A stretch of DNA of 64,000 bases from an uncultured Gemmatimonadales bacterium (GCA_963851265.1 CAWKNZ010000002.1:1024001-1088000), one strand, 5' to 3'; shown: positions 52,140 through 57,304, numbered from the stretch's first letter. Notes: a model not told the origin generated them from the sequence alone. Made by a program: numbers and translations.

Positions 52140-53551
52140 CTGCCCGGCGCCGCGGTGCGCCCGCCGCGCCGGGCGACTCGCTCTTCGGGACGGCGCGCGA
52201 GGCGGCGGCTCCGCTCGCGTCGCGCATGCGGCCTCGCACGCTCGAGGAGTTCGTCGGACAGCAGCACCTGTTGGGGCCGGGCCGACCACTCGGTGACTCG
52301 ATTCGGCGAGGGACCGTGCGTTCGATGATTCTCTGGGGTCCGCCGGGCACCGGGAAAACAACGCTCGCCCGCCTGGTCGCGGGGTACACCGATCGGATGT
52401 TCGTGCCGTTCTCGGCCGTGACCGAAGGCGTTCCGCGTGTGCGCGAGATCGTCGGGGAGGCTGCGGAGCGGTGGCAGCGCGAGGGGCGGGGAACGATTCT
52501 GTTCGTCGACGAGATCCATCGCTTCAACCGCGGACAGCAGGACGCGTTCCTTCCGCATGTCGAGAGCGGTACGGTCACGCTGATCGGCGCGACGACGGAG
52601 AACCCGTCGTTCGAACTCGTCGGCGCGTTGCTGTCGCGCGCGCACGTGTTCGTGCTCGAGCCGCTGGGCGCGGACGCGCTCGTGTCCCTCGTTCGGACCG
52701 CGCTCGCCGACGCCGAGCGCGGCCTCGGCTCGCTCGCGTTGCGGGCCGACGAGGACGCGGTCGCGCTGCTGGCCGAGCTCGCCGACGGTGACGCGCGGCG
52801 CGCGTTGACGACGCTGGAATCGGCCGCGGACCTCGCGGGAGCGGGGGGGCAGATCACGACCGCGCTCATTCGCGACGCACTCCAGCGGCGCGTGCCCCGG
52901 TACGACAAGGCGGGCGAGGAGCACTACAACATCATCTCGGCGTATCACAAGGCGCTGCGGGGTAGCGATCCGCAGGGGGCGTTGTACTGGCTGGCCCGGA
53001 TGATCGAAGGCGGCGAGGACCCTATGTACATCGCGCGGCGAACGGTGCGCTTCGCCGTCGAGGACGTCGGACTCGCCGACCCCAACGCGCTGCGCCTCGC
53101 AATCGCCGCGCGTGACGCGTATCAGTTTCTCGGTTCGCCCGAAGGCGACCTGGCTCTGGCCGAGGCCGCTGTCTACCTGGCGACCGCGCCGAAGTCGAAT
53201 CGGGTGTACGCGGCGTGGAAGGCTGCGCTCGCGGCGGCGCGCGAGTCCCCGGCCGAGCCGGTGCCGCTGCACATCCGGAACGCGCCGACGGGCCTGATGC
53301 GCGAACTCGGGTACGGCGCGGGGTATGAATACGCGCACGATGTGCCCGAGGCGTACATCGCGCAGGAGTATCTCCCGGATCGACTCCGCGGCGCGGCGTT
53401 CTACGAGCCCGGGCCGCACGGCTTCGAGCGGGACGTGGCGCGACGCCTCGCGTGGTGGGCCGACCTCAAGGCCCGCGCGGCGGGAGACGCCGAAGGGCCC
53501 GAATCGACGAACGACCCTACGACCAGCCGCGACGTCGGCAAGGAGGCATGA
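52136..53551 (+). CDS. rarA: Replication-associated recombination protein A
   Basis: [58 protein letters not shown] and QEYLP. Confidence 0.97.
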
Positions 53552-54033
53552 TGCGACATATCACGCGTGGGACCGCAGTCGCCGTCGTGGCCGCCGCGGC
53601 GATCGCGGCGACCGGATGCGCCAGCCTCGGGCACTCAGTGTTCGCGACACCAATCGTCTCGTTCAACACCGTCGAGGTGAACGGGCTCGGCCTGCAGGGC
53701 GGCAGTCTCGACGTCGTTCTGAGCGTGTACAACCCGAACCACTACGGGCTCAGCGCGCAGCGCATGGACTACCAGGTGCTCGTCGATTCGGTGCCGCTCG
53801 GGACGGGCGCGATCACGCGCAAGTTCGACGTGCACGGCGGCGACTCCACCCAGGTGCGGCTTCCCGTCACGTTCACCTACGCCGGCCTCGGCAGCGCCGG
53901 CCGTGCGCTGCTCGCACGCGGCGTCGTCAACTACCGCGTGCTCGGTAACATTACGGTCGGCACGCCGGTCGGCAATTTCACGCGCCCGTTCGACCGCACC
54001 GGGCAGTACAACAGCATCGGCGGCTTTCACTAA
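53548..54033 (+). CDS. LEA type 2 (WHy domain) lipoprotein
   Basis: Lipobox ATGC, VYNPN motif, beta-rich; SD AGGAGG. Confidence 0.85.
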
Positions 54034-54109
54034 CCGCCCGCGTCGCGGCGATCGTGCCGCTTCGTTCCGTTAGTCATACCACGTCACACACGCAGACAGA
54101 GGCCATCCC

Positions 54110-55399
54110 ATCGCACGCGATCTGATCACGCTCGCGCCGCCTACAGAACGCGCGATCCTGGTCGGCGCACCGCTCAAGCGGTCGCACGACCGACACAACG
54201 TCGACGAACACCTCGAGGAGCTCGGCCGCCTGGCCGATACCGCGGGGGCGTCCGTCGTCGGCACGCTCACGCAGCAACTCGACCGCCCGCACCCGGGCAC
54301 GTACCTCGGCAGCGGGAAGCTCGAGGCGCTTAAGGAGCGCGCCGGCGAGCTCGACGCGTCGCTGGTGCTGTTCGACGACGAGCTGTCGCCCGCGCAGGGC
54401 AAGAACATCGAGCAGGCGATCGGCGTGCGCGTCATGGACCGCGCCGAGCTGATCCTCGACATCTTCGCGACCCGCGCGCGCACCAACGAGGCGAAGCTGC
54501 AGGTCGAGTTGGCCCAGCTCGAATACATGCTGCCGCGTCTGACGCGCATGTGGACCCACCTCGAGCGCACGCAGGGCGGCATCGGCACGCGCGGCCCCGG
54601 CGAAACGCAGCTCGAAACGGACCGGCGACTCATCGGCCACCGCATTCGCGTCCTCAAGGAGCGACTCGAAGCGGTGCAGCGGTCGCGCGAGGTGCAGCGG
54701 GCGTCACGGCGCGACAGCTTCCGCGCGGCGCTCGTCGGCTACACGAATGCGGGGAAGTCGTCGATCCTTCGTGGCCTCACCGGTGCGAACGACGTGTTCG
54801 TCGAGGATCGCCTGTTCGCCACGCTCGACCCGCTGACGCGCGAGGCGCAAGTCGGCGCGCACGCGCGCGTCCTCGTCACCGACACGGTCGGGTTCATCCG
54901 CAAGCTGCCGCACCACCTCGTCGCGTCGTTCCGCGCGACGCTCGAGGAGACGCGCGAGGCGGACCTGCTCCTCCACGTGATCGACGCGAGTCATCCGGGC
55001 TGGGAGGAGCAGCGCGCCGTCGTCGAGGACGTGCTCGCCGACATCGGCGTGCGCGAAACACCCGTGCTCTACGTGTTCAACAAGATCGACGCGCTCGAGG
55101 CGGACGTGGTTGACGCGATGCGCACGCGCGAAGCGCACGCCGACGTCGAAGCGGTTTTCGTCTCCGCGCAGACTCCGGGCGGATTGCAGCCGCTTGCCGA
55201 CGCCCTCGCCGCGTGGGAGCAGAAGCGCTACAGCGTGGTCGACGTGTGCCTCGCGGCCGGCGATGGGCGCGAGCTCGCGACGCTCTACCGCGAGGCTGAG
55301 GTGCTGGAGCAGCGGTCGGACGAGGGGATGCTGCACGTACGGGCGCGGGTCGGGTCGCGGCTGCTCGGGCAGCTCCGAGACCGCGGGTTGGTGACGTAA
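54110..55399 (+). CDS. hflX: Ribosome-splitting GTPase HflX with non-canonical start (ATC 54110; alternative CTG 54122)
   Basis: N-domain LEELGRLADTAG...YLGSGK, RGPGETQLE, GYTNAGKS, LFATLD, DTVGF and NKID. No ATG/GTG/TTG in frame between the stop at 54071 and 54365. Confidence 0.93.
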   Translation: MARDLITLAPPTERAILVGAPLKRSHDRHNVDEHLEELGRLADTAGASVVGTLTQQLDRPHPGTYLGSGKLEALKERAGELDASLVLFDDELSPAQGKNIEQAIGVRVMDRAELILDIFATRARTNEAKLQVELAQLEYMLPRLTRMWTHLERTQGGIGTRGPGETQLETDRRLIGHRIRVLKERLEAVQRSREVQRASRRDSFRAALVGYTNAGKSSILRGLTGANDVFVEDRLFATLDPLTREAQVGAHARVLVTDTVGFIRKLPHHLVASFRATLEETREADLLLHVIDASHPGWEEQRAVVEDVLADIGVRETPVLYVFNKIDALEADVVDAMRTREAHADVEAVFVSAQTPGGLQPLADALAAWEQKRYSVVDVCLAAGDGRELATLYREAEVLEQRSDEGMLHVRARVGSRLLGQLRDRGLVT

Positions 55400-55567
55400 T
55401 CCCGCCGGTACGGCACACGGGTGCGACGGCCGGTGCGGCGGCCCTGCTTCCGTCTGCATGCTCGAGCGGCCACATTTGACCGCTGGACTGCGTAGCCGGG
55501 GTTCCGGCGCGCGCGCTTCGCGCCGGCTCGACGCGCGCTGCAGCGGTGACCCGGGATGAGGATCTGA

Positions 55568-57304
55568 GTGCACGGAGCGGGGCAAATCGGTTTCGAAGTT
55601 GGTTCCAAATCCGTCCGCATTCGTGCGCAGCGGTGCCTGTCGCGCGGCCGGCGCGCCGGGCCGATCGTCAGGAGCGTTGGCGCGGTCGTGTTCGCGGTCA
55701 CACTGGCCAGCACGGCCCACGGGCAGGCAGCGCCGCCGGCCCGGCCGACGACGGCGCCAAACACGGCGGCCCCGCCGCTCGGTACCGCGGCGTCAGCAGC
55801 ATCGCCCGGTGCCGTGCCACTCCCGACCGGCGGCCCCCTTCTCGACGCACCGGTCAGTCGCACGCAGTACCGAGTCGGGCCGGGCGACGTGCTCGACGTC
55901 GCGCTCCTCGGCGATCTGACCCGCGTGTTCGCGGTCGGCGTCGCGCCCGAGGGAACGGTGCTCGTCCCAGGGGTCGGCCTCGCGCGCGTCCTCGGCCTCA
56001 ACATCGACGAGGCGGAACGGCGCATCCGCGACCTCGTGCTTCGGTACTACCGCAACGTCGACGTTCGAGTCTCGCTCGCGCAGGTGCGAGCGTTCAAGGT
56101 GTTCGTCGTCGGCGACGTGGCGGCGCCCGGCGTTCGCAACGCGACCGCGGCCACTCGGGTCAGTGAAGTACTCCCGGACGCTCCCACCGATGGAAGCGTG
56201 CGGCACCGGAACGTGATCCTCCGGCGCTCGTCCGGCGACTCGCTCTCGATCGACCTCCTCCGGTTCCGCCAGACCGGCGACCTGAGCGCGAATCCAACGC
56301 TCCGCGAGGGAGACGCGATCATCGTCCCGATCATCGATCGCACGGTTCAGGTTTACGGTCGCGTCGCGTTCCCGGGCACGTACGAGTACCGGCGCGGCGA
56401 AACGCTGCAACAGCTCCTCGCCGTAGCCAACGGCGCCGGACCGTTCCCCGCGGACGCAGCCGACACGCTCCGCGTCGCGCGGTTCGTCGGCGCGGAGCGC
56501 CGCGAATTCCGCGTGTTCTCGCGGACGCAGGCCACCGGTCCGGAAGGTGACCGGTTCGTACTCGAGCCGTCCGACGCCATCTTCGTTCCGGCGGTCGCCA
56601 ACTACAAGGTTCAGAAGACGGCGGCGATCACCGGACAGGTCCTTCGGCCGGGGACGTACCCGATCCGACCGGAGACGACGACCGTTCGTGAACTCGTCGC
56701 CCTGGCCGGCGGATTCACGCCGGACGCGTCGCTCGCCGACGCCACCCTGCGTCGCGTTCCGCCGGCGAGCGAACTCCAGGGCGCGCGACAGCTCGCCAGC
56801 GTCCCACAGGATCTGTTGACGAGCGAGGAGCGGCGAGTCCTCCAGGCGCGGTCGCAGGCCGACCCCGCGCGCGTCGTGATCGACTTCCAGGCGTTGTTTA
56901 CGGGCGGACGCGATGCGCTCGACCAGTCGCTCGAGGCCGGCGACTCGCTCACGGTTCCGGTCCGGCGCACCGGCGTGACCGTGATCGGCGCCGTCACGAA
57001 TCCAGGGATCGTTCCGTACGCGTCGGGGCAGGGCATCGACTACTACGTGAATCTCGCCGGCGGCTACGCGCGGCGCGCCGATCGCGGCGGACGCACGGTG
57101 CTGCGCGCTCGACTCGGCGGTCGCGCGGACGCGACCGACGCGCGCGACATCCGGAACGTCAACGCGGGCGATCAGATCGTCGTCCCGTTCCGCGAACGGT
57201 CGCGCGTTCTGCAAAATTTCCAGACCGCGGCGGCGATCGTCGGTACCGTCACGGGGACGCTCTTCTCGCTGTACACGATTCGCCAGCTGGCGCGCGGCCA
57301 ATGA
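55568..57304 (+). CDS. Polysaccharide export protein with multiple SLBB domains (OPX, Wza/KpsD-like)
   Basis: YRVGPGDVLDV Poly_export motif, repeated G[DRQA]VxxPG SLBB motifs and LAGG motifs; the start may be further downstream. Confidence 0.88.
   Translation: MHGAGQIGFEVGSKSVRIRAQRCLSRGRRAGPIVRSVGAVVFAVTLASTAHGQAAPPARPTTAPNTAAPPLGTAASAASPGAVPLPTGGPLLDAPVSRTQYRVGPGDVLDVALLGDLTRVFAVGVAPEGTVLVPGVGLARVLGLNIDEAERRIRDLVLRYYRNVDVRVSLAQVRAFKVFVVGDVAAPGVRNATAATRVSEVLPDAPTDGSVRHRNVILRRSSGDSLSIDLLRFRQTGDLSANPTLREGDAIIVPIIDRTVQVYGRVAFPGTYEYRRGETLQQLLAVANGAGPFPADAADTLRVARFVGAERREFRVFSRTQATGPEGDRFVLEPSDAIFVPAVANYKVQKTAAITGQVLRPGTYPIRPETTTVRELVALAGGFTPDASLADATLRRVPPASELQGARQLASVPQDLLTSEERRVLQARSQADPARVVIDFQALFTGGRDALDQSLEAGDSLTVPVRRTGVTVIGAVTNPGIVPYASGQGIDYYVNLAGGYARRADRGGRTVLRARLGGRADATDARDIRNVNAGDQIVVPFRERSRVLQNFQTAAAIVGTVTGTLFSLYTIRQLARGQ

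Follow-up and report, generated by a model that had tools for sequence, protein, structure and literature searches.

The hflX gene of an uncultured Gemmatimonadaceae soil bacterium most likely begins at an ATC codon (54110–54112, + strand) that is led by a Shine-Dalgarno-like AGAGG and is predicted to be read as fMet by the initiator tRNA. We analyzed a stretch of 64,000 nt, referred to here as the window and numbered from its first letter, from a 4.6-Mb assembly of 73% G+C (G000:C2:1024001–1088000). An earlier note on this DNA had proposed the non-canonical start from the window itself, and relatives bear the proposal out: the homologous codon is ATC, ATT or ATA (together ATH) in 76 of 98 distinct genomes of the class Gemmatimonadetes. 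Because these relatives are kin, this and the other comparative counts overstate independence and are given without P values. What is new is the ATH start of hflX across the class, the canonical starts in the other sampled classes of the phylum and in Bacteroidota, and a link between the presence of a Shine-Dalgarno (SD) sequence and the type of start codon. A full-text literature search outside subscription journals returned no report of a non-canonical hflX start.

The 5' end of hflX

The hflX frame is closed by an in-frame TAG at 54071–54073 (+), 13 codons upstream of the ATC, and from there ATG, GTG and TTG are absent from it until the GTG at 54365–54367 (+). The ORF list, the stop-to-stop translation and the codon listing agree on this, as the earlier note had seen, and its placement of AGAGG at 54098–54102 (+) was likewise confirmed in the sequence. 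The AGAGG is complementary to the 16S tail CACCUCCUU and is separated from the ATC by 7 nt (CCATCCC). Starting from the ATC, the proposed coding sequence extends over 54110–55399 (+), which would give a protein of 429 aa plus stop. Canonical-start codons make up 6.4% of the coding codons of this genome, and for 85 coding codons to pass without one has a probability of 0.0036. Such a run explains why the case shows here, and it is the comparative data that bear the argument.

Gene order on the + strand is a RarA/MgsA ATPase, a LEA_2-domain gene (53452–54033, its own start uncertain) that ends 76 nt before the ATC, hflX, and a Wza-like polysaccharide exporter. Families f1 and f2 preserve the LEA_2–hflX order, and one f3 genome has rmlC upstream instead. 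Many relatives have an upstream stop that abuts or overlaps the start region (for example L012, L021, L189, L190, L194, L196 and L197), which puts the hflX SD inside the upstream gene. The TAG at 54071 sits within CGTTAGTC (window 54067–54074), one letter off a genome-wide word, CGTTAGGC, of which there are 8 + 3 exact copies in the window; four of 91 relatives (L011, L015, L019 and L125) have an exact copy in the 80 nt that precede their hflX start.

By its sequence, the frame encodes a full-length HflX GTPase. Its stop-to-stop translation, P0001, contains PIARDLITLAPPTERAILVGAPLKRS, LEELGRLADTAGASVVG and YLGSGKLE in that order, and Pfam matches follow the canonical HflX arrangement of GTP-bdg_N (PF13167, residues 45–132, E = 3e-32), GTP-bdg_M (PF16360, residues 134–212, E = 7.9e-34) and MMR_HSR1 (PF01926, residues 218–337, E = 6e-20), all above the curated cut-offs. 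The GTP-bdg_N match corresponds to nt 54206–54469 (+), and the first canonical start falls beyond its midpoint, in agreement with the earlier claim that this stretch encodes the conserved HflX N-terminal domain. Solved chains of ribosome-bound HflX match strongly as well (5ady_6 from E. coli, E = 1.5e-88; 8vkw_4, E = 5.5e-82) and cover residues 13–424 of the 429. In 8vkw_4 the E of the ERA motif is residue 8, and residue 24 of E. coli HflX aligns with residue 32 of the window protein. The closest named records that encode HflX are Gemmatimonadaceae and Gemmatimonadales MAGs, and the closest named proteins are from Gemmatirosa sp. (91% identity). Judged from its family, the window HflX would be expected to split 70S and 100S ribosomes in a GTP-dependent manner.

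The gene call in the protein collection, P0007 (344 aa, beginning MLFDDELSP), starts at GTG 54365 and corresponds to the sole canonical-start ORF in the hflX frame (54365–55399). This GTG is codon 98 of P0001 and lies within the N-terminal domain. A start there is improbable since it would delete most of that domain; P0007 is 85 residues short and lacks more than half of PF13167.

The homologous codon in relatives and rival starts

We gathered hflX 5' regions from 40 relatives, from a phylum-wide set of 121 genomes (115 matched at E ≤ 1e-40) and from extra stretches, anchored each locus on the conserved strand ERAxLVG by tblastn, and read the codon 10–13 positions before the E. Four loci were left unanchored: L022 is cut by a contig end, and L164, L170 and L175 show ATG starts. 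Among the 98 class genomes, which represent families f1–f9, the homologous N-terminal codon is ATC in 50, ATT in 21, ATA in five, ATG in five, GTG in five, TTG in four, CTG in one and none of these in seven, so that canonical codons total 14. ATH is present in eight of the nine families. Start-type codons other than those for Ile are always GTG where they encode Val, and TTG or CTG where they encode Leu. The seven genomes that lack a start-type codon comprise three with ATG only at position −8 (L143, L150 and L155), three with ACG and one that is diverged. ACG, a near-cognate of ATG, occupies the position in L137, L151 and L204, which belong to three families; in L137 the ACG follows an in-frame stop at a distance of two codons, and ERA is not preceded by any canonical start.

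The same-genus genomes closest in HflX protein (L006, L007 and L009) have an SD and ATC layout identical to that of the window. An in-frame stop upstream combined with no canonical start ahead of ERAxLVG is found in 36 of the 76 ATH genomes. Fifteen of the 76 have an in-frame stop no more than six codons ahead of the ATH. The spacing shrinks to two codons in L189 and, in a set of named MAGs, in L083, and in L081 stop and ATH are directly adjacent. Of the 46 Gemmatimonadota loci in that named set that extend to the N-terminus, 42 carry ATH and the other four carry GTG, GTG, ATG and CTG; the set overlaps the 98 genomes. Outside the class, the N-terminal codon is ATG or TTG in 15 of 16 genomes from three other families of the phylum, the remaining one being masked by N. 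Bacteroidota-type loci have ATG 2–13 codons before ERA in all 26 that contain the motif; six further loci gave no motif. One f1 genome, G080, holds two full-length hflX matches on contigs C58 and C18, with 66% and 59% identity to the query, and the second looks f2-type, so that it is either a paralogue or bin contamination.

An SD-like core, defined as GGAG, GAGG or AGGA located 3–13 nt upstream, precedes 61 of the 76 ATH starts and is missing at 15, as against two of the 14 canonical starts at the homologous position and 111 of the 507 ATH codons found in frame within these genes (22%). Coding signals change at the same place. In the window, the 12 codons that separate TAG from ATC score −0.89 bits per codon in codon-usage log-odds, the 85 that follow score +0.47 and the remainder of the gene +0.67. 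When the relatives are aligned on the ATH, amino-acid entropy stands at 3.6–3.9 bits over codons −8 to −5 and drops at −4/−3, the site of the SD; over the seven codons after the ATH it is 2.1–2.9 bits, and the variation is synonymous (GCA/GCT/GCG; CGC/CGA/CGT/AGA). ATC, ATT and ATA are used 50:21:5 at the start, compared with 418:74:15 at internal Ile codons. ATG is rare there relative to ATH (5 versus 76), yet 44% of all codons in these genes end in G.

These data bear on where translation begins. It is hardly credible that the ATC arose from an ATG through a sequencing error or a mutation private to this strain, or that GTG 54365 is the true start. Indel errors do exist in this assembly, which has at least two frame-broken genes (dnaA and a carboxyltransferase), and the protein collection carries the 344-aa call; but the SD and ATC are shared by the same-genus relatives, ATH predominates in the class, and the call from 54365 sacrifices the 85 residues described above. 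Conservation of the ATC in relatives rules out an assembly indel error for this site. The alignment of related 5' ends found ATC, ATT or ATA conserved rather than ATG throughout, and inspection of reads at 54110–54112 found no difference listed; the latter comes from a contig of sequencing run X1 that covers 54061–54394, and X1 is possibly the source sample, hence weak support. A start slightly farther downstream deserves more attention, although it too is very unlikely: translation could begin at CTG 54122–54124 or ATC 54125–54127 (+), which encode a conserved Leu-Ile, with ATC 54110 in an untranslated leader. CTG at position −8, four codons past the ATH, is seen in many relatives, seven of the 76 ATH genomes have ATG or TTG there, L143, L150 and L155 have no start-type codon other than an ATG at −8, and the other classes of the phylum begin M-I-E at −8. 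Yet the SD is 19–22 nt from the CTG and ATC but 7 nt from ATC 54110, and in many genomes the −8 codon is CCG, TCG, CTC, TCC, GTC or another non-start codon, which makes CTG 54122, named in the earlier note as an alternative, the less likely choice. Codons −11 to −9 also conserve A/S-R/K-D/E with synonymous variation, which implies that they are translated, and Bacteroidota retain the Ile at −7 after an ATG as well, indicating an ordinary residue. A second start may be used at −8, besides the ATH, in the lineages with ATG or TTG there, and Ile at the N-terminal position could be partly conserved as a residue.

A different question is how ribosomes reach the ATC. For the view that hflX is translated mainly by termination and reinitiation from an upstream frame, and not by 30S subunits newly recruited to the SD, one might point to the 26 of 76 ATH genomes in which an ORF of at least 140 codons has its stop in the interval from −30 to +40 nt around the ATH; seven of these ORFs were checked, and six proved to be the LEA_2 gene and the seventh rmlC. 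Several genomes have as that stop the TGA within CTGATC, 10–13 nt past the ATH, and the window itself, where CTGATC likewise holds a +1-frame TGA, has a 23-codon frame from GTG 54054 to the TGA at 54123–54125 that overlaps the ATC. The LEA_2 gene of the window, however, terminates well upstream of the ATC, the small overlapping frame has no SD and is of a kind common in 73% G+C DNA, and 13 of the 76 loci have no other-frame ORF of at least 10 codons ending nearby. The properly spaced SD is the better-conserved feature, and we consider predominant reinitiation unlikely. The 54054–54125 frame was also considered as a conserved coupling uORF and was rejected, as its length and start vary between genomes and it lacks an SD.

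infC and other genes of this genome

The gene for IF3, infC, appears from its sequence to start at ATC in this genome as well. It is located about 70 kb past the window end (L145:1474–1476, contig G000:C2), where GAGGAG is followed after 8 nt by the ATC. Same-genus relatives have ATT at infC, and ATH behind an SD is found in 15 of 15 f1 and four of four f3 genomes examined (19 of 24 overall); five f2 genomes seemingly use CTG behind GGAG(G). An SD-like core precedes only 65 of 470 near-unambiguous canonical starts genome-wide, though the 16S ends in CACCUCCUU. SD use thus seems low in this genome, and the strong SDs at hflX and infC seem to stand out. Given this low rate, a strong SD is unusual here, and it accompanies a weak codon.

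A screen for further cases scored 3,119 coding-like open frames by codon usage and flagged those whose first canonical start is preceded by 25 or more coding-like codons. A prior screen by GC at codon positions had missed hflX itself, and the codon-usage score was used instead. The codon-usage screen flagged 22 frames, among which hflX ranked fifth; infC went unflagged because canonical codons lie upstream in its frame. Pfam was run on 20 of the 22, leaving out hflX itself and a contig-end frame, and most of the 20 have no Pfam domain upstream of their first canonical start. One further good candidate emerged, a DedA/VTT-domain gene (L210:70–72; G000:C7:313114–313116) in which GAGG is followed after 6 nt by an ATC at codon 24 of the open frame, with the first canonical start at codon 66, inside the domain region. 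We regard it as the second candidate ATC start that the screen gives for this genome. From these sequences, ATH starts appear to be rare in this genome, yet hflX and infC each have one.

The screen also drew attention to dnaA (L211; G000:C1:11436–12854, − strand) and the carboxyltransferase gene (L212; G000:C2:1268859–1270346), both of which we rejected as non-canonical starts. In each, the N-terminal part is found in another frame just upstream, indicating a frame break. For dnaA the stretch LVVGTPDRFSAEWN, which we take to resemble DnaA domain I, lies in the +1 frame. The two breaks are either assembly indels or real pseudogenes.

A weak start and the level of HflX

The known role of HflX is to rescue and split ribosomes that are stalled or in hibernation; in some pathogens it also adds to tolerance of macrolides and lincosamides. 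To our knowledge, the control of its level has been described in only a few species. AUU starts regulate infC and pcnB, and IF3 holds such starts down. By extension from E. coli, a member of another phylum, the AUC start of hflX is likely to be held down by IF3 in the same way and to yield a small percentage of what AUG would yield; in reporters tested in E. coli, AUA, AUC, AUU and CUG reached 1–2% of the AUG level (10.1101/063800). On this reading the cell would keep HflX scarce and would make more of it whenever there is too little IF3 for the ribosomes present. In relatives with an abutting or overlapping upstream stop, coupling to upstream translation may add to initiation.

A link of hflX to IF3 or to ribosome stress would fit the layout shared with infC and the pairing of the SD with ATH rather than with canonical starts. 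In its strongest form, hflX and infC would be an IF3-sensed pair, such that a shortage of IF3 raises both an anti-association factor and a 70S splitter, with the wiring kept across the class. We put this forward tentatively, as an idea more apt to be wrong than right. A simpler account, which we rate as plausible though short of probable, is that the weak start merely fixes a low level of HflX with no IF3-linked regulation, ATH plus a strong SD being one of several equivalent ways to do so. Selection on output alone predicts the observed distribution of SDs, present at most ATH starts and at few of the canonical-start lineages. That lineages with a canonical start have mostly lost the SD suggests that output level is under selection; IF3 sensing as such does not follow from it. 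The surroundings of the start are also plain, as this simpler account would have it. The leader (54034–54160) folds no better than its shuffles (z = +0.77) and gave no sign of a thermosensor or attenuator, and a search of 53300–55700 gave neither an Rfam family, with E allowed up to 1, nor a match to a sigma-70-type promoter or an intrinsic terminator. Against a mere fixing of the level, ATH persists in nearly all families though one mutation makes ATG, and infC in the same genomes has the same layout. That one particular solution recurs suggests that the identity of the start codon may itself matter.

The ATH start of hflX is a further case of the infC/pcnB type. Like hflX, infC is a translation-factor gene in which a strong SD is followed by ATH, is kept over a long evolutionary distance and is missed by gene finders. 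The two differ in that IF3 itself discriminates start codons, closing an autoregulatory loop (PMC2830850), whereas HflX is not known to judge start codons and any loop would run through IF3. The pcnB gene, described as the second non-canonical ATH-start case of E. coli (10.1101/063800; PMC2830850), likewise has an ATH codon, AUU, which limits the expression of a protein that is harmful in excess; its AUU is reported for E. coli and close kin, whereas the hflX ATH is kept across a whole class. Deinococcus dnaA, for which N-terminal proteomics is reported to show an ATC start (PMC2830850), resembles hflX as a conserved housekeeping gene whose start was found through poor N-terminal annotation and orthologue alignment. 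It is a different gene from a different phylum and has peptide evidence, whereas the hflX start is proposed from sequence. Finally, sigR of Streptomyces is a stress-response gene with a GTC start reported to be repressed by IF3 (PMC5472188); it differs from hflX in using GTC rather than ATH and in encoding a sigma factor rather than a ribosome-associated GTPase.

An infC-type start of hflX that is kept across a bacterial class points to control at the initiation step and offers a testable link between ribosome splitting and IF3. It also has a practical side, as standard gene finders cannot call ATH starts and the N-termini of HflX are corrupted in databases, alignments and structure predictions. 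Indeed, the public hflX calls of the relatives begin at varied internal or upstream codons.
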